Positions 5,413 through 31,087 of a stretch of DNA of 31,376 bases are shown here, piece by piece. The position numbers were made by a program, and so were the translations under genes. The stretch lies in UHGV virus genome UHGV-0241516. One strand, written 5' to 3'. Numbering within the stretch: position 1 is the stretch's first letter; each line of letters starts with the position of its first letter. Below the pieces are notes generated by a model. The model searched no databases and was not told the origin of the DNA. It saw only the letters and a program-made list of their open reading frames with translations. The DNA is from a virus.

Positions 5413-6779
5413 TGCACTGGCACCTTCAGAGGGATCACCGGCACAAAGCCGGGATGCGTAATGGCATTACGCCGGATAATGTCCGCGTCACGCGCCGCGT
5501 TATCAAACCAGGTCGCCGCCAGCACCAGCGCGGGTAAAACCTCATCCGGCGTGCGCTGAATGATCCGTGCAGACTGTTCAAGGCGCGTGTTGATATCCGC
5601 ATTCAGATCTGCTTTCACCCGGCGCAGCGCCAGAAACAGCGCATCACTGGTTGTACGGGACAACTCCTTATCAATTGCCGTATTCAGTGTGTCGCGAATG
5701 TCAGTCAGTTCTTCCCACGTCGGCAGGTCAACTGTGTTTTTCACCGCCGGTGCATTGTTCAGTGCCGGATGCGTGACGGAAGGCCAGCCAGTGCTCTGCG
5801 CAGGTGTTGTTGCCTGCCCCACTGCGGCATTCTGCATCACCGCGGAAGTTGTTGGCGTAGGCAATCGGGTGACGGCATACGCCGCTTCGCTGATTGCGGT
5901 CGTACGAAGGGTGCTGGCAACCACGTTACGCTGCTGCGTAGCCGTGGCGGTGGTTTTACTGTCCGTTTTCCAGACGCCGCGCGGTTGCAGATCGCTGCCG
6001 AGGCTGACACCGGAAAGCGTTTTGATCATGGTGACCAGGTCGCTGGCGTTACCATAAAGGCGTTTCCCGGTACGCCACATTTTCTGCACCTGCTCAACGA
6101 AATTTTTGCCTGACGATGGCGGCGGCAGAAGTACCGAGATATCCCCCTGCAACAGCCTGGCGGCATCCGATACGGCAGAATCCACCACTTTCATCGCATC
6201 AGAAACATACCCAAGCATTGTGCTGGCATTACCGACGACGTCGTTCTGCACAAAATCTGCCACGCCATCGATACTGAAACTACTGAAACTGTCACTGATG
6301 CAGTCATCCAGTGCAGAACAGGATGACATCAGCGTCTGCGCCGTCGCCGCACCTGATGTGGGGTAAGAGAGTTCTCCCGCTTCGACAAACTTCAGGTCAA
6401 AGCGGACAATACGCCCTTCACTCTTCGATGTGCTGACCCGAACCTCTCCGTCAACACAGACTTTCAGCTCACCGTAAGTCGGATGGACAAGCGTGCCGGG
6501 ACCGGGTTTATTCAGCGCGTCAATCAGGCGATCGCGCTGGTCAAAGCAGTCATCTCCCACCACATAAGCCGTGATGGACGGGCGGAAAGTGATTTTCCCC
6601 AGGTCTTCGGTATAGGGTTTGTCGCGGTTCGGGTATTCGTGCGTTTCCACACGACGACCGGTTCCCGCACTTTCTTCTTCAACCTTAAACGGCACACCGC
6701 GAAATGACGCGTCCTGAAGTCTGTCTTTCCACGTCATATAAACTCCGTACATAAAAAATCCCACCGGAGTGGGACTCAT
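5409..6779 (-). CDS. Mu N-like DNA circulation protein
   Basis: 456 aa. N-terminal MTWKDRLQDASFRGVPFKVEEE…HEYPNRDKPYTEDLG matches the DNA-circulation N-terminal domain as recalled. Directly downstream of the tape measure. Confidence 0.75.
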   Translation of the reverse strand: MSPTPVGFFMYGVYMTWKDRLQDASFRGVPFKVEEESAGTGRRVETHEYPNRDKPYTEDLGKITFRPSITAYVVGDDCFDQRDRLIDALNKPGPGTLVHPTYGELKVCVDGEVRVSTSKSEGRIVRFDLKFVEAGELSYPTSGAATAQTLMSSCSALDDCISDSFSSFSIDGVADFVQNDVVGNASTMLGYVSDAMKVVDSAVSDAARLLQGDISVLLPPPSSGKNFVEQVQKMWRTGKRLYGNASDLVTMIKTLSGVSLGSDLQPRGVWKTDSKTTATATQQRNVVASTLRTTAISEAAYAVTRLPTPTTSAVMQNAAVGQATTPAQSTGWPSVTHPALNNAPAVKNTVDLPTWEELTDIRDTLNTAIDKELSRTTSDALFLALRRVKADLNADINTRLEQSARIIQRTPDEVLPALVLAATWFDNAARDADIIRRNAITHPGFVPVIPLKVPVQ

Positions 6780-6797
6780 TAACAGATTAATTTTTCA

Positions 6798-8633
6798 TTA
6801 CCTGCCAAAGCGCGTATAGCCAACATCATGGCTGACATCAAAACCGCTGGATCGCGTTTCCATAACCCGCATACCCGGAGGCGAATTCACAAAAGAGACC
6901 TTGATCTCACCATCAACTTTTGGCGCAGAAGCTTTGTTAATCATGAAGGGATTCAGGCCTGTGGCACCGGAGGCGTTGTTTGACTGAGCCGGATCTACCG
7001 CCGGATAAGGTGTGTATCCCCGCGCCGGTATTCCCGTCCCATAAGCATCATAAGCACCCGCGCCCCACTGCGCAGAGTTAATGGCATCGACCGTGTCACC
7101 GGAACTGTCGGTAAACCACTCAATAATTGGCTTCAGCTTGTCCCACATATCCTGAAACCACTTAACAACCGGTCCCCAGTTATTGATCACCATCCCCAGC
7201 GGCGACCAGGCAAAAACCTTCTTAAGAAGTTCCCAGCCAGTCTCAAAATAAGGACCAATGGTTTCCCAGAGTTTCTTAAAATAAGGTCCGACAACATCCC
7301 AGTTAGTGATAATTAATCCCGCAGCGAGGGCTATCGCCGTCGCAATCATGCCAATCGGCGTCATCGACATGATCCTGCTGACAATACTGATGGCACCGCC
7401 AACGCCCATCAATCCCAGTTTCAGAATCGCAAGACCGGCAGCAAGCCCGACGACGCCGCGAATAACCCGGGGATTTTCATCCGCAAACTTCGTGAATTTT
7501 TCCCCTAACTCCCCCAGCCATTGCGTGATATTTTTAGCGTCACCAGAAAATGCGCCGCCAATAGCCGCAAGGCCGTTAGTTGCGGTCCCCGTCATTGCCT
7601 CCCACAGGTTGGACAGCGTACCAAGCTGAGCCTGAACACGTTTATTCAGGCTGGCCTGTTTATTCATCTTCTGCTGGATCTGATCGTAGCCATCCTTTCC
7701 TTTATCGATCAGCGCATTGACCACCTGAAGGGTTTCGGCATCATCACCAAATATTGCCTTAAGTACACCGGTTCGCTTAACGTCGGTCAGTTTTCGCAGC
7801 TTTGCCAGTTGCCTGAACATGTTATCAAGACCGCCAAAACTCCCTTTGCCATCAGTAAAATCGAGCTGTACCCCGAGTTTCTGGCGGGCCATGATTTTAT
7901 TGACGTCCCTGATTTTCTTAACGCTTAATCCGGACTGGATAACTTTTCGCAGGGCATTACCTGCCGACTCCCCGTTCATCCCCATCTGATCCATCATGAC
8001 ACTGATGGGGGCAAGACTCTGTGCAGCCTGAAGACCGTCCTTATTCACCATTTTCAGAACAGAACTGGTTTTAGTGAAGAAGGACAACATGTTGGTATCA
8101 TCAACGCCCAGATAAAACGCCTTCTGGATAGTGTCGAACAGCCCCATCATGTCTTCTGACGCCGTTCCGGTAGCATCCTGCATCTTTGCAGCAAACTCAG
8201 CAGCCGCTTCCGGTGTTTTTTTCAGTTGTACCGCAAGATAAGCTGTCGCTTTACCCACACCACCAAGAATGTTTTCTGCCGGGATCCCCTGACGCACCAG
8301 CATCTGCATCATGTTCTGGAAATCAGCCGTTGTACCGGGTAGCTGGTTACCCAGGCCAATAGCCAGTTTATTGATGTCCTGAAAGCTCTTTCCAACCTCG
8401 CCGTTCGCATCCATCATGGCGACTTTCAGCCCGGTGGCGGCGTTTTCCTGATCGGCATAAGATTTCAGGGAAAGCGTCAGACCCGCTGCCAGTCCGCCAC
8501 CAAGCGCCAGCCCACCCTGTGACGCTTCTTCCGCCTGGCGTTTAAATCCCCGGATTTTCTTTTGCATTTTCGACAGCGCGGGAGAAAGCCTGTCGACACC
8601 GGTGATCAACGCCTTAAGCTCAAATTCAGCCAT
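6798..8633 (-). CDS. Tail tape measure protein
   Basis: 611 aa, Ala/Gly-rich with long hydrophobic segments (GVVGLAAGLAILKLGLMGVGGAISIV…). Follows the frameshifted chaperone pair. ATG at 8633-8631. Confidence 0.85.
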   Translation of the reverse strand: MAEFELKALITGVDRLSPALSKMQKKIRGFKRQAEEASQGGLALGGGLAAGLTLSLKSYADQENAATGLKVAMMDANGEVGKSFQDINKLAIGLGNQLPGTTADFQNMMQMLVRQGIPAENILGGVGKATAYLAVQLKKTPEAAAEFAAKMQDATGTASEDMMGLFDTIQKAFYLGVDDTNMLSFFTKTSSVLKMVNKDGLQAAQSLAPISVMMDQMGMNGESAGNALRKVIQSGLSVKKIRDVNKIMARQKLGVQLDFTDGKGSFGGLDNMFRQLAKLRKLTDVKRTGVLKAIFGDDAETLQVVNALIDKGKDGYDQIQQKMNKQASLNKRVQAQLGTLSNLWEAMTGTATNGLAAIGGAFSGDAKNITQWLGELGEKFTKFADENPRVIRGVVGLAAGLAILKLGLMGVGGAISIVSRIMSMTPIGMIATAIALAAGLIITNWDVVGPYFKKLWETIGPYFETGWELLKKVFAWSPLGMVINNWGPVVKWFQDMWDKLKPIIEWFTDSSGDTVDAINSAQWGAGAYDAYGTGIPARGYTPYPAVDPAQSNNASGATGLNPFMINKASAPKVDGEIKVSFVNSPPGMRVMETRSSGFDVSHDVGYTRFGR

Positions 8634-18712: not shown

Positions 18713-19063
18713 TTACTTAATCCGTTCACGGGCCGTCTTCGCCTTATGACACGGCCAGCACAGACTCTGTAGGTTACTGTCTGCATCGGTGCCGCCATGC
18801 GCTTTAGGGATGATGTGGTCAACGGTTTTCGCCTCGCGCACCACACCGGCACGCAGGCACAACTGGCACAGGCCTTTGTCACGCTTCAGCACACGCGCGC
18901 GGATAACGTCCCACTTCGAACCATAACCGCGCTGATGACGGGACTGGCCAGACTTGTATTGCTTCCAGCCTTCGCTTTTGTGGCTTTCGCAGTAGCCTGA
19001 TGGGTCAGTCGTGGTATGGCGGCAGCCGCGAACGCGGCAGGCTTTTGGGGTTCGTGGAGGCAT
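18713..19063 (-). CDS. HNH endonuclease (terminase-associated)
   Basis: 116 aa. Cys pairs (CRVRGC…C) plus HIIPKAHGGTDADSNLQSLCWPCHKAKT are the HNH signature. Directly upstream of TerS as in HK97. Confidence 0.85.
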   Translation of the reverse strand: MPPRTPKACRVRGCRHTTTDPSGYCESHKSEGWKQYKSGQSRHQRGYGSKWDVIRARVLKRDKGLCQLCLRAGVVREAKTVDHIIPKAHGGTDADSNLQSLCWPCHKAKTARERIK

Positions 19064-19190
19064 CTATTATCCCTGTAGTTTTCGTTAAATATCTAACCAT
19101 AACTGCAATCAGAAACCGCTTTAACACGGTTTGCTAAATAGACTTTTCAATCCAATGAATAAACGGCAAGTAAATACCAATCGTTCATTT

Positions 19191-19625
19191 TCATTTGAAT
19201 ACAAACTGTTCTGAAAGAATATTATGACAAATATATTTCGCCTGAATACTATTATCTCTCATTCTAATATATTCTTTGTGGGCAACAGATAAAGAACGAC
19301 AACCGCTGTTTACACGTGGGTATTTTTCCAACATATGTTCGCATATCAAAAAAGCATTATTAATAGCATTTAATTTATGGCTTAACTCTCGTAGCTCGGC
19401 CCTTTTTTCAATACGAACATTACGACTAAGAGATAAAGGTAGCTGTGATAATGCATTTGAATAATCAGCCACTGCCATTTTCAGAGCCATTTTGGCCTTC
19501 AGAGCCTCCTGTCGCCGCCAAACATTCATTGCCCAAAAACCTAATGTAACAGTTACAATTGAACCTAAAGCCGATACAGCTGACCACACAGTTCCCCAAG
19601 GCCAGTTAAGTAATGTATGCCACAT
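19191..19625 (-). CDS. Moron: membrane-anchored protein of unknown function in an AT-rich island
   Basis: ORF track start is GTG 19637; second ATG at 19625 has GGAGG 5 nt upstream. N-terminal hydrophobic helix, then a ~100-aa soluble domain. Local GC is visibly lower than the flanking phage genes. Confidence 0.6.
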   Translation of the reverse strand: MWHTLLNWPWGTVWSAVSALGSIVTVTLGFWAMNVWRRQEALKAKMALKMAVADYSNALSQLPLSLSRNVRIEKRAELRELSHKLNAINNAFLICEHMLEKYPRVNSGCRSLSVAHKEYIRMRDNSIQAKYICHNILSEQFVFK

Positions 19626-19993
19626 CATAACCTCCACTGAATGAAAAGGTTAGTTTATCGTAAGTGAACATCACTGGCACTATCTAAAGATTAGCTGCTC
19701 TACTAGTTGTACTCTCGATAATCTAAACAAAATGATACGTAATAAACCTGTTCATGACTAGCTCTACTAGACACATGTTTAATCATCTACAAACGATTTG
19801 TACAAACTTCCACTTTCATATTGGTCCAAAATGTTGGACTAATAGTTAATCACGATGCATATTTTATGTAAGCTGCTACATTACACTATAAAAACGCTGG
19901 CGTCTGAATTTAAGCCCATAAGTTTTATAAAATTATCATAATACACAGCTTTATTAGGCGCATTCGCACTGATAATGAAAAATATAACTCGAG

Positions 19994-20266
19994 CTATTTG
20001 TCTTTCGAATGCAAAATAGCGCGCCGTGATTCAATCTTTCTGATTCCAGTTTTATCAAAATTACATTGTCCCAAGGCTGACAATAGAGCAACATTCAACT
20101 CCAGACTGGTACCATACGTCAGCGGATTGGGTATAAACGGTACAGGAGTATCAGAAGTCAGGCTGGCTGGCAGTGGTGCCACCGGAGCGCTCACGTAAAC
20201 CGTTCGCGAATTTCCGCAACCGGTCAGCAGCGGCAGCAGGCACAGGACGTGAAGCACAATCATCAT
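19994..20266 (-). CDS. Rz1-like o-spanin lipoprotein (+1 frame, overlapping Rz 3' end)
   Basis: ATG ATG at 20266-20261. Signal peptide with lipobox LLTGC, Pro-rich mature part. Overlaps the last ~115 nt of Rz and extends past its stop. Confidence 0.65.
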   Translation of the reverse strand: MMIVLHVLCLLPLLTGCGNSRTVYVSAPVAPLPASLTSDTPVPFIPNPLTYGTSLELNVALLSALGQCNFDKTGIRKIESRRAILHSKDK

Positions 20267-20543
20267 CCGCAACAGCCACTTTGATATCTTCCTGGGTTCT
20301 CTGTGACTCCAGTGCGATCTGCTGTTTTGCATGCTGGTTAACCTCTATAACTGTATTGACGATTTGCAGTGATTGCAGGACGTTACGGGTAATGGCTGTT
20401 GCAGATTCAACATTTTGTACAGCCTCATCAGCACGTTTCTTTTCGTGCTGATATTTGCTGTAGTAGTGGTTGGCAGACCAGATGAAAGAACCGATGACAG
20501 TAAAGAAGAATGCAGCGATAACCAGCTTATAGCTCAACTTCAT
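20151..20543 (-). CDS. Rz-like i-spanin
   Basis: 130 aa with N-terminal TM helix and coiled-coil periplasmic domain. Immediately follows the endolysin. Confidence 0.8.
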   Translation of the reverse strand: MKLSYKLVIAAFFFTVIGSFIWSANHYYSKYQHEKKRADEAVQNVESATAITRNVLQSLQIVNTVIEVNQHAKQQIALESQRTQEDIKVAVADDDCASRPVPAAAADRLRKFANGLRERSGGTTASQPDF

Positions 20544-21003
20544 TTACCACCCCACCAGCCTCTTTAAACCGGGAAATCAGGTCACCGATTTTATGTTCAT
20601 ACTGACCGTAACCTGCACCAGGTAACGACGCCCAGATATTGCTGCAACGATCGATAGCCTGACGGATATCACCGCGATCAATCATCGGTAAAGCGCCACG
20701 CTCTTTAATCTGCTGCAATGCCACTGCGTCCTGGCTTTTGGGGGAGAAGTCTTTCAAACCAAGCTGTTTACGGTAAGCATCCCACCAGCGTGAAAGAAGC
20801 TGATAACGTCCGGCGGCTGTTGATTTGAGTTTGGGGTTTAACGTGACAAGTTTGCGAGGGTGATCAGAGTAATCAGTAAACAGTTCGCCGCCAACAATAA
20901 CATCATAACCGTGGTTACGTGTCGGTTGTCGCCCGTTATCCGTTCCTTCTGACCATGCAACCATATCCAGGAAAGCTTTACGCTGGGAATTTAGTACCTG
21001 CAT
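20527..21003 (-). CDS. R: Endolysin, lambda R-like lytic transglycosylase
   Basis: 158 aa, near-identical over most of its length to lambda R as recalled (…QRKAFLDM.AWSEGTDNGRQ.TRNHGYDVIVGGELFTDYSDHPRKLVTLNPKLKST…). Confidence 0.95.
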   Translation of the reverse strand: MQVLNSQRKAFLDMVAWSEGTDNGRQPTRNHGYDVIVGGELFTDYSDHPRKLVTLNPKLKSTAAGRYQLLSRWWDAYRKQLGLKDFSPKSQDAVALQQIKERGALPMIDRGDIRQAIDRCSNIWASLPGAGYGQYEHKIGDLISRFKEAGGVVNEVEL

Positions 21004-21006
21004 AAA

Positions 21007-21342
21007 TTACTCCTTCGAGCTACCAAACTTGTTACCGATTACTCTCATTGCAGCCCCACGAATAGCATCGACACCGATCAGCCCCACCCCACCACCAATG
21101 GCAACAGAAAGCGATTTAGGCCATCCGACATACTCAAGCGCGGATGCAAAGGTCAACGTCAGAGCGCCACATAGCAAAATCTCGAGCGTTTTTCGCTTCC
21201 AGCCACCACCACCGCCAAAATAGGCGATGCGCAAACCAGCCATAACAATCGACATAATCACTGCGCCCAGCGGCGTATCTCCACGCCACCAGCTCTGAAA
21301 CAACTCCAGCCAGTCCGGCCAGGTATTTGGGTTATGAGGCAT
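21007..21342 (-). CDS. Putative holin (three predicted TM segments)
   Basis: Chosen start ATG at 21342 has GAGGTGAGAG ~9 nt upstream. The ORF track's longer frame starts at 21438 and overlaps the methyltransferase. Directly upstream of the endolysin. Confidence 0.6.
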   Translation of the reverse strand: MPHNPNTWPDWLELFQSWWRGDTPLGAVIMSIVMAGLRIAYFGGGGGWKRKTLEILLCGALTLTFASALEYVGWPKSLSVAIGGGVGLIGVDAIRGAAMRVIGNKFGSSKE

Positions 21343-21418
21343 TTCGTCATCTCTCACCTCGCGATATTTGCGGGTGCTGTGTTGGAAATAAAAAGGCCAC
21401 GCAACGTGGCCACCAGAA

Positions 21419-22471
21419 TTATTTCCCCACCAGTTCACTTACCTCTTTCACCGTCTGATTAAACCGCTCTGACTCAAGTTCAACACCTAACGCCCGACGC
21501 CCCAGCGCCATTGCCGCTTTTATTGTGGAACCGGATCCCATAAAGAAATCAGCAACCAGATCGCCTTGTCGACTACTGGCACTGATTATTTGCCGGAGCA
21601 TATCCGCAGGCTTCTCACACGGATGTTTACCCGGGTAGAACTGAACGGGTTTATGCGTCCAGACGTCGGTATAAGGCACGGAAACTGATACGGAGAAATA
21701 GCGCCGGAGAGTTTTAAACTCATCCAGCAATTCATAATATTTGCGATTCAGTGAATCATAAGATGCCACCAGCTGGTGGTGTGGTTGTTCCAGTTGTTGT
21801 TCCTGAAACTTCTCTGCCGCTATACGGGAAAACAGTGCCTGCAACTTCCGGTAGTCAGCCTCATTCGGCAACTGCCACTGACTGGCACCAAACCAGTGGG
21901 AAACCATATTTTTCTTACCAGTGGCTTCGGCAATCTGTTTTGCCGTTATACCCAGTTCGGCACGAGCATCCCTGAAATACGATATCAGCGGTGCCATTAT
22001 GTGCTGTTTGAGTTCCCTTTCTTTTGCCGCATAGCCGTCACTTTTGCCGCGATATGGCCCCTGGTAATGTTCAGCAAACAGAACGCGCTCTGTGGCAGGA
22101 AAATATGCGCGCAGACTTTCTTTATTACACCCATTCCAACGTCCGGACGGCTTCGCCCAGATGATATGGTTAAGCACGTTGAAACGTTCACGCATCATGA
22201 TCTCAATATCAGATGCCAGGCGATGCCCACAGAACAGGTAAAGGCTTCCGGCAGGTTTCAACACCCGCCAGAACTGGGCCAGACAGTGGTCCAGCCACTT
22301 AAGGTAATCTTCGTCCCCTTTCCACTGATTGTCCCAGCCGTTGGGTTTCACCTTGAAGTAAGGCGGATCGGTAACAATCAGGTCAATGGAATCATCAGGC
22401 AGGGACTGAATAAAATGCAGGCAATCAGCGTTGATTAAATCAACACTGTTTATTTTTACAGTATTTTTCAT
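21419..22471 (-). CDS. DNA methyltransferase, beta-class (N6A or N4C), orphan
   Basis: 350 aa. DPPY (motif IV) near the N-terminus and FFMGSGST (motif I) near the C-terminus. No restriction partner seen. Confidence 0.8.
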   Translation of the reverse strand: MKNTVKINSVDLINADCLHFIQSLPDDSIDLIVTDPPYFKVKPNGWDNQWKGDEDYLKWLDHCLAQFWRVLKPAGSLYLFCGHRLASDIEIMMRERFNVLNHIIWAKPSGRWNGCNKESLRAYFPATERVLFAEHYQGPYRGKSDGYAAKERELKQHIMAPLISYFRDARAELGITAKQIAEATGKKNMVSHWFGASQWQLPNEADYRKLQALFSRIAAEKFQEQQLEQPHHQLVASYDSLNRKYYELLDEFKTLRRYFSVSVSVPYTDVWTHKPVQFYPGKHPCEKPADMLRQIISASSRQGDLVADFFMGSGSTIKAAMALGRRALGVELESERFNQTVKEVSELVGK

Positions 22472-22621
22472 GGATCAGTAAGCGTAACTCTGGTAGGCTC
22501 ACTCTGCTTTTGCGCTAAAGCAGTGGGCCGTGGTTCGCTTGTGACCAGTAGGCATGAGCGAATGGCTGGCAGGTGCTACCAACACCCACCAGCCGCCCAT
22601 TTTCACAGCAGGAAACCGCCA

Positions 22622-22849
22622 TTACTGGCAGCGTCTGAATTTATTCCCGTACCCGCCGTTATCCTTCGCCAGACCCGCCAGAACTAACTGAGTCAGTATT
22701 AACTGGCACCGGGCTTCGCTTACTCCGGTAGTTCTCGTCATCATGCGTGGCGTTACCCACTTGTCAGCAGGTAAGAAATGAAGGACTGCGGCGGCGGTTT
22801 CTGTCATATCTTGCTGTTTTAGCATGTCTTTTTCCCTTCTGGTTAACAT
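22622..22849 (-). CDS. Small hypothetical protein (75 aa), possible winged-helix
   Basis: ATG at 22849-22847 with weak RBS. Function unknown; could be spurious. Confidence 0.4.
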   Translation of the reverse strand: MLTRREKDMLKQQDMTETAAAVLHFLPADKWVTPRMMTRTTGVSEARCQLILTQLVLAGLAKDNGGYGNKFRRCQ

Positions 22850-22946
22850 GACATACCAATAACTCTTGTCTAAAAAGCCAGCAAGATAAAAAGTCAGTAT
22901 TCACGACCACCAGCGTGTTTACTGTGCTGCACCAAGTTTACAGGTA

Positions 22947-22972
22947 CAAAAAAACCGCTCAGCGGCGGGTTT
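22947..22972 (-). terminator. Terminator-like hairpin with T7 tract on the minus strand
   Basis: Minus strand reads AAACCCGCCGCTGAGCGG followed by TTTTTTT (plus A-run 22948-22954). Stem is short. Could be tR'-like. Confidence 0.35.
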
Positions 22973-23144
22973 AAGTTGTGTGGCGAAGTAACCACTCTTA
23001 ACACAGTAATCTAGAAAATGCGGACCGCGTTAGTGATTTTTATCTGTTTTTCCATTATTTTTTTGCCACACAGCTTAAAACGAAAAATAAAGCAGGCGTT
23101 GCCAAACCTCACGGTGACAGTTGGCTTAGAATGAGGACATATTT

Positions 23145-24164
23145 TTGGATAAGTTTGATGAGATTCATGTAGACATTGAATCTGAGCAGCAAGCCTTCGA
23201 TTTGCTTGAAAGCTATCTTGATGGTTATGGTTTACCTGACAGTTTAAGTTTCAACGGATGGCCAAACCTTACCATCAGATTAACCGGTGAAAAATTCAAC
23301 AGATCGCTAACACCTTCAGTTATGAAGGGATTTGTTGAAATGCAAGCTCAAATCAACAAATCATATGCCCTTGCCAAGTACGGTGTCCCTGACGTCCGCA
23401 AACTGACCAAAGAAGAACTTGATGCCCTAGAAATAGAAGTTACGGTAGAACAGGGTTCTTCAATAGTAGAAATCAACATTGATGGCTTTTTAACCAAACT
23501 CACACAGGAACTTGTTGGTAAAATGAACGCAACTGAGATCATGTTTACTGTTCTCGGCGCAGCAGTCATCTGGGGCGGAGTAACAGTATTTAAACGGTTC
23601 TTGGACAACCGTAAAGATATTCGCCTTGCAGAAATTGCTAAGGATGGAGAGAAAGAACATCTCCGGACTATGCAGATCATGAGCGAGCAAGAAACTAAAC
23701 GCCTGCGGGTTATTTCAGAAATGATTGCGGAAAAACCACTTCTCGATAACATGGACCGTATGTCGTATGACGCTAAAACCCAAATGGTCAAATCCTTTGT
23801 GCGTTCAGATAACGCTCAAATTGATGGCGTTACTATTGATTCTGAAATGGCGAAAGAGTTGGTTACGAATGCTCGTAGACGTTCATCAGAAATGAGGATT
23901 GATGGTATTTACCGAATTGAAGAAGTCAATAATACTGACCCAGAGAGTTTCAAAGTTAAGGTCCGACGCGTAGATACCGACCAACGTCTAACCTGCGTAG
24001 TTCAGGATGTTTTCCTTGATGAATCCGGAAACAAAGAAGCATTGCAGCGAGCTGAGTGGGAAAGAAAGCCTGTACATTTGAGCATTAACGCAAAACACGT
24101 CGATGGTGACATTAAGTCAGCAGTAATTCTCTATGTTCGAGATGTGGAACAAAAGCCCGAGTAA
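23145..24164 (+). CDS. Moron: 339-aa protein of unknown function with a central predicted TM helix, opposite strand to the prophage
   Basis: TTG start at 23145 with GAGGA 7 nt upstream; no in-frame ATG upstream after the stop at 23127-23129. Hydrophobic IMFTVLGAAVIWGGVTVF mid-protein. Lower GC than flanks. Ends 14 bp from the convergent Q stop. Confidence 0.7.
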   Translation: MDKFDEIHVDIESEQQAFDLLESYLDGYGLPDSLSFNGWPNLTIRLTGEKFNRSLTPSVMKGFVEMQAQINKSYALAKYGVPDVRKLTKEELDALEIEVTVEQGSSIVEINIDGFLTKLTQELVGKMNATEIMFTVLGAAVIWGGVTVFKRFLDNRKDIRLAEIAKDGEKEHLRTMQIMSEQETKRLRVISEMIAEKPLLDNMDRMSYDAKTQMVKSFVRSDNAQIDGVTIDSEMAKELVTNARRRSSEMRIDGIYRIEEVNNTDPESFKVKVRRVDTDQRLTCVVQDVFLDESGNKEALQRAEWERKPVHLSINAKHVDGDIKSAVILYVRDVEQKPE

Positions 24165-24178
24165 TCGGGCTTCAATAA

Positions 24179-24556
24179 TCAATCTTTAATTTCGGGGTCC
24201 ATCTCTAGACTAATTTCCAGCATCGATAGGCAGCCATCAATAAACCCCTCAGCCATCTGTATCTCAATGCGTATTAGTTTCTCATCCTTTTTACGAGCCT
24301 TGGCGAGCTTTCTTTTAGAGATACCGTATAGGTAATGGGCAACAAGAAGCGAATGTTCGTCCGGCCTTTTTTGCCTTAGACGAGCAAGACAACCTTCAAT
24401 AATTAATGCATCACTATCTGAACATGCCTGACGTGTTTTGCTTGTATAGGGAAGAAGCCCTTTAAACCCAGCAGCTATAGGAGAATAGTCTACTCCTGAA
24501 CTATCACTCGCCGCCCATGCTCCCCAACGATCCAGAACCATTTGAATATCACGCAT
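24179..24556 (-). CDS. Late-gene antiterminator Q (QuuD-like)
   Basis: Preferred ATG at 24556 with GGAGA 6 nt upstream. MRDIQMVLDRWGAWAA…IAAGFKGL… matches the QuuD-like Q N-terminus as recalled. Upstream of the lysis cassette. Confidence 0.7.
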   Translation of the reverse strand: MRDIQMVLDRWGAWAASDSSGVDYSPIAAGFKGLLPYTSKTRQACSDSDALIIEGCLARLRQKRPDEHSLLVAHYLYGISKRKLAKARKKDEKLIRIEIQMAEGFIDGCLSMLEISLEMDPEIKD

Positions 24557-24573
24557 CAACTTTCTCCACAAAA

Positions 24574-25569
24574 TCAGGCCAGCACGCCAATTGCCAGCGC
24601 ACGATCGATAAAACGAAATATCAGCTCCAACTGAGAGCCATACTTTTCTTCAAATACCACGGTATCCGCATGCAGCTCGTCGTGATGCTTTCTGCACAAA
24701 GGCAGCACGAAGAGGTCATGCGCTTTTGTACCCATTCCACCCTGACCGTGGCCTATCAGGTGGTGGGGATCATCTGCAGGCTTTCCACAACATGCACACG
24801 GCTGCGTCTTAACCCAGCGCGTGTACTTTTCGTTAACCCAGCGGCGACGTTTGGGACGTAACATAAAAGACTCCGGCGACTCCGGATCCACTTTCAGCGC
24901 CAGCACCTTTTTCGCTTTATCCTGGATGATGCTGGTGGCAGGAACCGAAGGCACAAGGTCACTTTCCCGGGTGACAGACGGCACAACAGGCTTCGGTAAT
25001 CTCAGTGCCTTACGGGCTGCGCTTTCCGGTAAGGCATCCGCCAGGTCATTACGAACCAGCCACCAGCACAGTTCCGGCATTGTCACAACGTGACTGTCAT
25101 CAAAACCGAGATCCCGACGCACGACAGACAACACCCAGCGGGCACAGTTATCCGTTGCCATTGATTCCAGCCGTTCCGTGAATTGATCGCGCAGCTGGTT
25201 ATCGCAGTGCCAGCACAGACGGATTGCGCCCGGAGCATGTCGCATTGTGGTCATGTTCTCGCTGTGCCAGCCGGAATGAGGCCACTGACAGCCTTTTTCA
25301 CGAAGTAACCAGCTTTCAAGACATTCCACGCCACCAGCACGACGGATCACTGCCTCATTACGGAACACGGCCCGAACGGCAGGATCATCCGCCAGTGGTT
25401 GTGATGCCGCCGGAACGGCACCACTGGCAAAAGATGAATAACGTTCCGGCTCAGGCTCCAGCAGGACACGCCCCTGCATAAACAGGGGCATCAGCTCTGA
25501 ACCAGGCCTGAATAATACGATCCCCATACGCGGGGCAATTTCAGGGGTCAGTAGTGCTCTCACGGTCAC
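24574..25569 (-). CDS. DUF968-like protein with C-terminal HNH-type motif
   Basis: 331 aa. C-terminus CACCGKP…HHLIGHGQGG…CRKHHDELH is HNH/zinc-finger-like. GTG start is uncertain. Confidence 0.6.
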   Translation of the reverse strand: MTVRALLTPEIAPRMGIVLFRPGSELMPLFMQGRVLLEPEPERYSSFASGAVPAASQPLADDPAVRAVFRNEAVIRRAGGVECLESWLLREKGCQWPHSGWHSENMTTMRHAPGAIRLCWHCDNQLRDQFTERLESMATDNCARWVLSVVRRDLGFDDSHVVTMPELCWWLVRNDLADALPESAARKALRLPKPVVPSVTRESDLVPSVPATSIIQDKAKKVLALKVDPESPESFMLRPKRRRWVNEKYTRWVKTQPCACCGKPADDPHHLIGHGQGGMGTKAHDLFVLPLCRKHHDELHADTVVFEEKYGSQLELIFRFIDRALAIGVLA

Positions 25570-25570
25570 C

Positions 25571-26368
25571 TCAATGAACGGTATCGAGCAGCTTTAACAG
25601 CTCAGGGAATCGGGATTCGAAGAAATGCGGCTGCGTCTCGCGCGGATTTGCAGGACTGGTAATGTTCTTGCCGAACATGCAGCCTTTCGCCGTCAGCGAC
25701 CAGAATTTTTTGATGTTGTTAATCGCGGTACGGCTGTATCGTTCGCGTTGTTCAACGATCCCCAGCTTCGCCATCTGGTGATATGCCTGATTAGCTGTCA
25801 GGCGGATACCATACTGCCTCAGCAGTGCACTCAGTGACAGCGTGGGGCGGCTTGAGCCATCAGGCGCGTCAGCAGGAGCATCAATGGCATAGCGCGGTGC
25901 CAGATTCGGTAAGCCAACAGCCTCCTGGAGTTTCTGACAGGCACCAAGCACTGAAGAGTTAGACAGGTTTAATTCCCGGCGCATAAAGTCCAGCAGAATC
26001 ACACCAGCCTGCATCTTGTCAGCAGCCTGTCCGGATAATTTTTCCGGTGCGCTGGTTACCATGTCGAAAGTACGGATCACCTTCAGATGGAATGACGGGC
26101 TGATCCACATTGCATAGGCATACACCAGTTCTTTGCAGACATACGTCCCCTGGTTATTTCCGCCACGAATAACGTTAACTGGCTCTATATTGACCGAGTT
26201 GCAAATCTGCAACTCGCTTATTAAACGTTCAGTTTGCTCATTGCGGAGCCAGAATGCAGGCTTATGCTTATCCAGAGAACCGGCAGCCCTGTGCAGATCG
26301 TTCAGGCTGTAACGTCCATAAGCATCACGACGAACTTCAATACCATCAATGACCATCAGATTATTCAT
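25571..26368 (-). CDS. KilA-N domain protein
   Basis: Preferred ATG at 26368 with GAGGAG 9 nt upstream. N-terminal MNNLMVIDGIEVRRDAYGRYSLNDLHRAAG… is KilA-N-like. Confidence 0.7.
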   Translation of the reverse strand: MNNLMVIDGIEVRRDAYGRYSLNDLHRAAGSLDKHKPAFWLRNEQTERLISELQICNSVNIEPVNVIRGGNNQGTYVCKELVYAYAMWISPSFHLKVIRTFDMVTSAPEKLSGQAADKMQAGVILLDFMRRELNLSNSSVLGACQKLQEAVGLPNLAPRYAIDAPADAPDGSSRPTLSLSALLRQYGIRLTANQAYHQMAKLGIVEQRERYSRTAINNIKKFWSLTAKGCMFGKNITSPANPRETQPHFFESRFPELLKLLDTVH

Positions 26369-30412: not shown

Positions 30413-31087
30413 ATGAAAACAATCCATGACATCCGGCGGTCTAACGCCAGAAAACTGAGAGATGGTGTTGGCGGGAATTCTTCCTTTGCCACTATGATTG
30501 ATCGCGAGCCAACCCAGACCAGCAGGTTTATGGGAGATGGTGCTACTAAAAATATCGGTGACAGCATGGCACGACACATCGAAAAATGTTTCGACCTGCC
30601 TGTCGGATGGCTCGATCAAGAACACCAGACAACGAACATCACAAAAAAACCTGATGTTTCAATCACTAATAAACAAATCACATTAGTCCCTGTCATATCA
30701 TGGGTACAGGCCGGAGCATGGAAAGAAGTTGGATATTCTGAGGTTGATTTGAGCACAGCAGAAACGTATCCCTGCCCTGTACCCTGTGGGGAAATGACTT
30801 ATATCTTGCGGGTGATAGGTGATTCAATGATTGATGAGTACCGCCCGGGAGACATGATTTTTGTCGATCCTGAAGTACCTGCCTGCCACGGTGACGACGT
30901 TATTGCATTGATGCACGATACAGGCGAAACCACCTTCAAAAGGTTGATAGAAGATGGGACACAGCGTTATCTCAAAGCGTTAAACCCAAACTGGCCTGAG
31001 CCTTACATTAAGATCAACGGTAATTGCTCTATAATTGGTACAGTGATTTTCTCAGGAAAACCAAGAAGATACAAAATCAAAGCCTAA
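30413..31087 (+). CDS. CI-like repressor (HTH + S24 LexA-like autocleavage domain)
   Basis: 224 aa. ATG at 30413, TAA at 31085-31087. C-terminal half has the S24 peptidase signature (…VIGDSMIDEYRPGDMIFVDP…). Confidence 0.85.
   Translation: MKTIHDIRRSNARKLRDGVGGNSSFATMIDREPTQTSRFMGDGATKNIGDSMARHIEKCFDLPVGWLDQEHQTTNITKKPDVSITNKQITLVPVISWVQAGAWKEVGYSEVDLSTAETYPCPVPCGEMTYILRVIGDSMIDEYRPGDMIFVDPEVPACHGDDVIALMHDTGETTFKRLIEDGTQRYLKALNPNWPEPYIKINGNCSIIGTVIFSGKPRRYKIKA

Follow-up and report, generated by a model that had tools for sequence, protein, structure and literature searches.

A reverse-oriented moron cassette at the 3' end of the antiterminator gene Q encodes a candidate phage-exclusion protein

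The DNA examined here is a 31,376-nucleotide stretch of the UHGV virus genome UHGV-0241516, referred to as the window, and the subject of this work is a single gene, hereafter the cargo gene, which lies tail to tail with the late antiterminator gene Q. The cargo open reading frame (ORF) occupies positions 23145-24164 of the plus strand, encodes 339 amino acids (aa) and starts with TTG, with a Shine-Dalgarno GAGGA on the same strand at 23133-23137, 7 nt 5' of the start codon. Its stop codon TAA (24162-24164) is separated by 14 bp from the stop codon of Q on the minus strand (24179-24181). An original prediction, made from the sequence alone, had described this start codon, ribosome-binding site and convergent arrangement, and all are present. 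It had also called the gene the sole sizeable plus-strand gene within the minus-strand late region, and the ORF survey agrees: between position 1 and the repressor gene cI at 30413, the cargo ORF is the only plus-strand ORF of at least 90 aa that is not overlapped by a longer minus-strand ORF, and all other long unshadowed ORFs from position 1 to about 30400 are on the minus strand. The plus strand carries just one further gene, for a CI-type repressor (30413-31084, Peptidase_S24 match), hence the cargo gene shares the strand of cI and runs antiparallel to the early-right and late operons.

The cargo ORF has a GC content of 42.0%, compared to 52.5% for the window, 49.7% for its left flank and 53.5% for its right flank, which confirms the low GC that had been proposed for it; only 3.9% of the 1020-bp windows are as low. 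At third codon positions its GC content is 0.39, against 0.51-0.56 for the genes beside it. The identical coding sequence exists in RefSeq as WP_000357056.1, a 'hypothetical protein', and of the 5,426 complete E. coli genomes, 87 contain the region 22850-24178 with a coverage of at least 80%. Avian pathogenic (APEC) and uropathogenic (UPEC) E. coli are among the strains that host the gene. When the gene was compared with relatives whose synonymous sites are unsaturated, the ratio of non-synonymous to synonymous substitution rates (dN/dS) ranged from 0.014 to 0.042. Given this low dN/dS, the RefSeq coding sequence, a full-length match to phrog_6191 and the large size of the family described below, the cargo ORF is a real gene under strong constraint and not a chance ORF.

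The alleles of this site were surveyed by searching positions 22600-24600 against E. coli genomes. In two prophages (L003 and L006) a 148-aa plus-strand ORF fills the slot of the cargo gene and in a third (L004) a 205-aa minus-strand ORF does so. In alleles of these types the late-side flank is 99% identical to the window, up to position 23003 or 23010, and on the other side the DUF968 gene and the 5' end of Q are about 96% identical to it. In a more distant prophage (L005), whose flanks are 74-82% identical, the slot is empty and the stop codon of Q directly adjoins DNA homologous to window 22793-23050. Thus, the site shows presence and absence among close relatives, with alternative genes and an empty allele, and the gene differs from its neighbours in base composition and ends in a hairpin, as anticipated when it was first called a moron; we consider it almost certain that it forms a genuine moron cassette. 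The 148-aa alternative cargo protein corresponds to WP_001038608/9 (L003 3497-3943 and L006 3306-3752, both on the plus strand), the 205-aa one to WP_000360285 (L004 3503-4120, minus strand), which has a sub-threshold WYL match.

Comparison with the empty allele indicates how the cassette may have entered. The Q proteins of the window and of the empty-site prophage agree up to ...LEMD (residue 125), beyond which the last Q codons of the window encode PEIKD and a stop (24179-24196, minus strand), a replacement tail that probably came in with the cassette. On the far side of the cargo gene, at 23030-23074 on the minus strand, lies what seems to be a remnant of the former 3' end of Q, AVWQKNNGKTDKNH plus a stop codon, and this codon aligns with the one that ends the empty-site Q tail DWLPKKVKND (L005). 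Since the Q tail has been swapped and the old tail is found beyond the cargo gene, we infer the insertion, within the final Q codons, of a cassette of ~ 1.1 kb (about 23076-24196); Q would thereby have been given a new short tail and its old tail would have been stranded on the other side. The 5' edge of the remnant, ACACAGC on the plus strand (23069-23075), is kept in most of the Q-adjacent loci listed, whose proteins share 69-100% identity, which points to a single ancestral insertion.

The original prediction had placed the gene in the cargo hotspot that lambdoid phages have between Q and their lysis genes. The existence of a variable cargo slot stands, but the slot is in the 3' end of Q, before the late promoter and terminator, and not at the classical site downstream of them. 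The segment 22967-23029 (minus strand) is homologous to the late regulatory spacer, 200 bp long, that separates Q from the first late gene where the site is empty, and at 22947-22966, on the late-gene side of the cassette, it is followed on the same strand by a tR'-like intrinsic terminator, GCCGCTGAGCGG and seven T; the DNA beside the Q stop codon in the empty allele also bears the tR'-like terminator GCCGCTGAGCGG. Since the entire late spacer is found beyond the cassette as seen from Q, the late promoter pR' must fall on the side of the late genes, within either the spacer 22967-23029 or the Q-tail remnant; its position was not located by a consensus promoter scan. The conserved late-side flank of the slot is formed by the first ORF of the late operon (22622-22849, minus strand, 75 aa, phrog_331).

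At the other end of the cassette, a hairpin AAGCCCGA-GTAA-TCGGGCTT at 24153-24172 overlaps the stop codon of the cargo gene. Its predicted folding free energy (dG) is -13.6 when read on the plus strand and -13.8 on the minus strand, where the stem is followed by TTTTGTT; no T-run follows it on the plus strand. Because the U-run would be present on the minus strand only, the hairpin looks primarily terminator-like for a transcript reading through Q. Upstream of the gene, the 69 bp at 23076-23144 (plus strand) are specific to the cassette and are the presumed site of its own promoter and leader. They contain an inverted repeat GCCAA...TTGGC at 23101-23125, and other lineages carry a different inverted repeat at a roughly equivalent position. 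In the leaders compared (window 23095-23150; L018, L050 and L072-L078) a lineage-specific inverted repeat stands 20-35 nt before the TTG, and in one fold of the window leader (dG -7.9) the ribosome-binding site and start codon are paired with CCUCA and CCAAA. The minimum-free-energy folds predicted for the leaders are inconsistent across lineages, hence we make no claim of a conserved RNA structure in the 5' leader, and Rfam gave no match within 19000-26000. The TTG start and a GAGG-type ribosome-binding site are kept in the Q-adjacent relatives of 69-100% identity.

Several neighbouring genes were noted in the same survey. Q itself (24179-24571, minus strand, 43.8% GC), convergent with the cargo gene, matches PF06530 with E=2e-52. 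Its longest ORF has a TTG start and 130 aa while the RefSeq product from APEC O78 is shorter (381 bp including the stop, about 126 aa), so that the start of Q given here is provisional. Just upstream of Q on the minus strand lies a DUF968 gene (24574-25569) whose product weakly matches the HNHc_6 nuclease and which accompanies this Q type in most related prophages. A type II N6/N4 DNA methyltransferase gene (21419-22471, minus strand; PADLOC MTase_II, E=3e-152) and the phrog_331 ORF are found between the late terminator and the holin gene, which is the classical cargo position downstream of tR'. Lastly, a 148-aa ORF without a Pfam match (19191-19637, minus strand) is situated within 19001-20000, in the stretch of lowest GC of the window (36-38%), flanked by the lysis genes and by the HNH/terminase end of the structural gene block, and is possibly a further cargo gene.

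The cargo protein matches PHROG 6191 over its full length (E=1.6e-152; residues 3-337 against positions 2-337 of a 338-position profile), a family annotated as of unknown function. An exhaustive profile search retrieved at least 1,523 family clusters at 50% identity with E<=1e-3, 590 of them at E<=1e-30, and the best 150 are nearly all proteins of 320-374 residues that match from end to end; a word-indexed search gave 101 clusters at 90% identity. No match above threshold was obtained in Pfam, NCBIfam or the Protein Data Bank (PDB) by sequence or profile, so that the earlier statement that the protein belongs to no nameable family holds for these libraries and for PADLOC, and no housekeeping or structural family was matched above threshold in the Pfam and PADLOC defence searches that had been proposed as a check. 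When 53 aligned members were compared with Pfam, the only hits were below threshold: DUF7947 on the C-terminal region (7 members) and FNIII-A_GpJ (5 members). A full-text literature search found no mention of DUF7947. Searches with a profile of the N-terminal domain alone or of the C-terminal domain alone returned fragments only and no domain fusions.

Structure prediction, the second check that had been suggested, was performed with AlphaFold2 and the 53-sequence alignment. The full-length model has a mean predicted local distance difference test score (pLDDT) of 85.2 and a predicted template modelling score (pTM) of 0.79; modelled alone, residues 1-245 reach 90.0 and 0.87. In the model, residues 1-245 form an acidic region with an alpha/beta part and a helical part, which includes a hydrophobic Gly-rich helix at 132-149, also evident from the sequence, and residues about 248-333 fold into a five-stranded barrel that superposes on solved oligonucleotide/oligosaccharide-binding (OB) folds. 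Region 1-245 has no structural match in the two libraries searched, of solved and of viral structures. The fold thus appears, as far as the model goes, to be largely new, with a C-terminal domain of the OB-fold class. The soluble domains of ~ 130 and ~ 190 aa that had been predicted on either side of the helix agree in length with the 131 and 190 residues into which the hydrophobic stretch splits the protein, but the model shows a compact 1-245 unit followed by the OB fold instead.

Across 152 diverse members, the positions conserved in 85% or more are chiefly occupied by Gly, Ala, Pro, Trp and hydrophobic residues, and the few polar ones are E14, Q67, E91, S105 and R244. This conservation pattern is not active-site-like and, from sequence, the protein does not look like an enzyme. 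The N-terminal domain has a net charge of -10 (family mean -5.6) and the OB domain of -4 (family mean -1.1), and a conserved NARR-x-S motif stands before the OB fold.

The genomic contexts of the relatives were examined at 109 loci from E. coli, other genomes and viral contigs, in which ORFs were called and the distinct neighbours scanned against Pfam. The family is hosted by prophages of Enterobacterales, Pseudomonas, Acinetobacter, Moraxella, Pasteurella, Halomonas/Vreelandella and Treponema, and its members occupy two main slots, either tail to tail with Q or directly after CI on the repressor strand. A convergent Q is the downstream neighbour in 26 of the 63 distinct contexts, usually across 12-23 bp, and the relatives concerned are at least 69% identical to the cargo protein. 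A same-strand CI/LexA-type repressor (Peptidase_S24 plus helix-turn-helix) stands upstream in 17 of 61 contexts, with relatives of 33-63% identity, and the N antiterminator is the downstream neighbour in five of the 63. Among the homologues that follow a repressor are the Salmonella protein P0052 (63% identity), which is present in hundreds of contigs including those of S. Typhi, and others in Morganella and Acinetobacter prophages. In the inducible APEC phage phi458, Orf11 lies 25 bp after CI and is a distant full-length member of the family (hhalign probability 98%); it is not discussed in the phi458 paper. In the Moraxella phage Mcat17 an unclassified 240-aa ORF of the same strand precedes the homologue, which is divergent from the early genes. 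In lambda, rexAB occupy the position right after cI, which is the classical place of lysogen-expressed genes.

Other placements were also observed. In P. aeruginosa prophages (L011-L014) a homologue of 44% identity, at 6001-7002, lies on the late strand between tail genes I and J; this is a third insertion slot, which may hint at a link with the tail or with entry. No conserved partner gene was found beside the homologues in any of the contexts collected. An Acinetobacter locus (L015, 4308-8193) shows a post-repressor accessory run composed of an HSDR_N-domain protein, a 100-aa ORF, the homologue and a GGDEF protein. In spirochaetes, distant relatives or structural look-alikes were seen in Treponema genome bins (L028, L029) and among the BFVD entries (A0A8S5T657, and Q6NE06 of Leptospira phage LE1). 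The family may therefore range well beyond Proteobacteria.

A full-text literature search on the accession, the PHROG number and phi458 found no characterisation of the protein. The same protein has, however, already been flagged by a published machine-learning screen, hence its candidacy as a defence protein is not new. Table S10 of the DefensePredictor study (DeWeirdt, Mahoney, Laub, Science 2026, PMC13092281), a set of 1,041 E. coli protein clusters of predicted uncharacterised defence proteins, includes WP_000357056.1 with a mean log-odds of 6.55 (minimum 4.51, maximum 9.74) against a cut-off of 4. Its label in that table is 'Predicted novel defense gene', and neither HHblits nor Foldseek connects it with a defence protein already known (PMC13092281). 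One of the systems validated in the same study, DS-34 ('CITO'), consists of a CI repressor and a 323-aa AbiZ-like membrane protein with two predicted transmembrane (TM) segments (PMC13092281). The defence or exclusion role, called a speculation in the original prediction, is thus better founded owing to the relatives in the rexAB position and to the DefensePredictor listing, but is still a prediction.

Whether the protein could act at the membrane depends on the hydrophobic stretch. In the cargo protein, I132-F149 are 18 uncharged residues between E131 and K150-R151, with conserved small residues in VLGAAVIWGG, and the Kyte-Doolittle mean over 19 residues reaches 1.77 (usual cut-off 1.6). The query and its close relatives display 18-20 uncharged residues followed by K/R and means of 1.77-2.33, and 36 of 53 relatives are at or above 1.6. 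Positively charged residues within 15 positions are more numerous on the C-terminal side (3.7 K/R against 1.9). Considering these features, a membrane association of the cargo protein is plausible from its sequence.

Taking context, family and prediction together, the reading that we favour, with a probability of about 0.45, is that of a moron cassette inserted once in the Q tail and encoding a non-enzymatic phage-exclusion protein, which would be present at a low level in the lysogen and act at the inner membrane. That the gene serves, more generally, to protect the lysogen from other phages is rather probable. As to mechanism we favour, tentatively and with some doubt, a Rex/AbiZ-like abortive infection carried out within one polypeptide. 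Transcription of the gene would start at its own weak promoter, which would face away from the late promoter, and the conserved TTG start would hold the protein at a low level. The hairpin after Q would normally protect the cargo gene from antisense transcription; upon induction, antiterminated early transcription would pass the hairpin and silence it. The acidic N-terminal domain and the OB fold would recognise a product of the infecting phage, whereupon the Gly-rich helix (VLGAAVIWGG), by oligomerising in the inner membrane or inserting into it, would make the membrane potential collapse. A more specific form, which we consider unlikely, is a one-protein 'sensor plus pore' module, in other words Rex in a single chain, with the helix hidden in its helical bundle until the OB fold or the acidic domain recognises a phage product, upon which the helix would enter the membrane; temperate phages from enterobacteria to spirochaetes would carry this module in slots flanking cI and Q.

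Several observations weigh against the favoured exclusion reading, the first group of which concerns the membrane. The Kyte-Doolittle mean is below 1.6 in 17 of the 53 relatives, the uncharged run is just 14-15 residues in distant members and simple summation on the Hessa biological scale gives +2.7 kcal/mol (family mean +3.0), which describes a marginal span. If the span is real, the K/R bias implies that the C-terminal half is cytoplasmic and that the 131-residue N-terminal domain is exported without a signal peptide, an unusual topology. Moreover, AlphaFold breaks the helix at G144/G145 and, given the compact 1-245 model and its high pTM, the helix may be packed with other helices inside a bundle. 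The central TM helix of the original prediction is therefore confirmed in part only: the hydropathy of the query agrees with it, while the Hessa scale, 17 of the relatives and the compact model speak for a marginal or packed helix. A second group concerns function: a consensus scan of the 69-bp leader found no canonical sigma-70 promoter; PADLOC-DB v2.0.0, a 2023 release that covers the systems known to then, gave no defence-protein family at E<=1; the OB domain is acidic to neutral, unlike typical binders of single-stranded DNA; and the dN/dS of about 0.02 is tighter than for many fast-evolving defence genes. In addition, WP_000357056.1 is missing from the tables of tested systems of the DefensePredictor paper, so that its listing is a prediction (PMC13092281).

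Among the alternatives, the one that survives best, although it seems quite unlikely, is superinfection exclusion at entry, in which an inner-membrane protein with one periplasmic domain would block genome injection, possibly by binding a tape-measure or ejection protein or a host channel, and let the cell survive. HK97 gp15, P22 SieA and T4 Imm are reported to block genome injection without killing, and exclusion morons such as HK97 gp15 are known from tail-gene regions. The central hydrophobic helix, the acidic and non-enzymatic character of the cargo protein and the P. aeruginosa homologue between tail genes I and J agree with such a block. However, the OB half would be cytoplasmic by the positive-inside rule, a signal peptide is lacking, the helix is marginal as a TM span and AlphaFold packs the N-terminal domain with the helical region, which is hard to fit with domains on opposite sides of the membrane. 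Furthermore, the main slots are regulatory, after cI or beside Q, and not in the tail module.

An improbable alternative is that of a soluble cytoplasmic defence or regulatory protein, in which the hydrophobic helix would serve as a buried core or in oligomerisation and the OB fold would bind nucleic acid or a phage protein, hitting the replication, transcription or assembly of the invader as BstA or Tai do. This would suit the compact 1-245 model with its high pTM, a hydrophobic stretch that is marginal and short in distant members, the conserved NARR-x-S before the OB fold and the OB fold itself, which is common to SSB, PriB and RPA. It is less compatible with the 18-20 uncharged residues and K/R of the query and its close relatives, a typical membrane anchor, with an OB domain that is not basic, and with the lack of Tai homology and of a match in PADLOC (to 2023).

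Equally improbable is a lysogenic-conversion or fitness factor (envelope, stress or virulence, as for bor, lom and iss) or a function in the phage's own cycle, such as lysis timing, control of late transcription or stability of the Q module: lambdoid-phage morons also encode virulence and fitness factors, the hosts include APEC and UPEC, and strong purifying selection, uniform architecture and tight Q linkage fit phage housekeeping, but the family spans phages of hosts with many different lifestyles, the gene is missing from closely related, apparently complete prophages and hence dispensable for the phage cycle, in many phages it lies on the repressor strand after cI, and DefensePredictor scores the protein as defensive.

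If the cargo gene is defensive, a very widespread single-gene, non-enzymatic family, largely without structural precedent, would join the prophage-borne immunity genes, and the Q region would have a second mode as a cargo site. A gene placed between Q and the late promoter region would be inherited together with the late-regulation module, and one hairpin would shield it from early transcription or let it be silenced by it. The recurrent post-cI placement would also provide a simple rule for finding further such genes. As the gene is short and self-contained, the hypothesis is directly testable.

Among the closest known systems, the OB-fold proteins SilF/CusF, the AB5-toxin B subunits and SSB/PriB correspond to the C-terminal domain. 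The weak GpJ match and the P. aeruginosa tail context prompted a comparison with the tail-assembly inhibitor Tai, which was rejected, as BLASTP against phi80 Orf63 (TaiEcA) gave E=9.2; the 205-aa alternative cargo is unrelated to phi80 Orf63 as well and was likewise rejected as a Tai. HK97 gp15, P22 SieA and T4 Imm are small inner-membrane proteins that phages or prophages carry as morons, which the cargo protein would resemble if its helix spans the membrane, and like gp15 one lineage of the family sits among tail genes. With its two folded domains (~ 130 and ~ 190 residues), the cargo protein far exceeds them in size. No match to the HK97 gp15, SieA or Imm families was seen in the Pfam and PHROG scans, and no direct comparison was run.

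DS-34/AbiZ and the cargo protein are both single proteins of ~ 320-340 aa with a hydrophobic region, which in the cargo protein is a putative membrane segment, and DS-34, like the post-repressor relatives of the cargo protein, is encoded directly after a prophage CI. Homology to DS-34 (WP_000377448.1) or AbiZ was rejected (hhalign probability 0.35%), and DS-34, as described, has a two-helix membrane region (184-237) and a remote AbiZ similarity, both of which are absent from the PHROG 6191 family. With lambda Rex, the relatives have in common the slot after CI on the repressor strand, and the N gene downstream in five contexts, and the proposed logic is that of a sensor and a membrane effector made in the lysogen. 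Rex is composed of two polypeptides whereas there is one here, the present gene adjoins Q and not cI, and the cargo protein has at most one, marginal, membrane helix compared to four in RexB; homology to RexA and RexB was rejected (hhalign probability 0.12% and 0.09% respectively). Finally, stx-type cargo of 933W-type phages is likewise an accessory gene between Q and the lysis cassette, in a slot that is variable in near-identical prophages. An stx-type gene follows pR'/tR' in the orientation of the late genes and, once the prophage is induced, owes its expression to Q. The present cassette, in contrast, is upstream of the late promoter and terminator region, inside the Q end and in the opposite orientation, hence its expression should be Q-independent.

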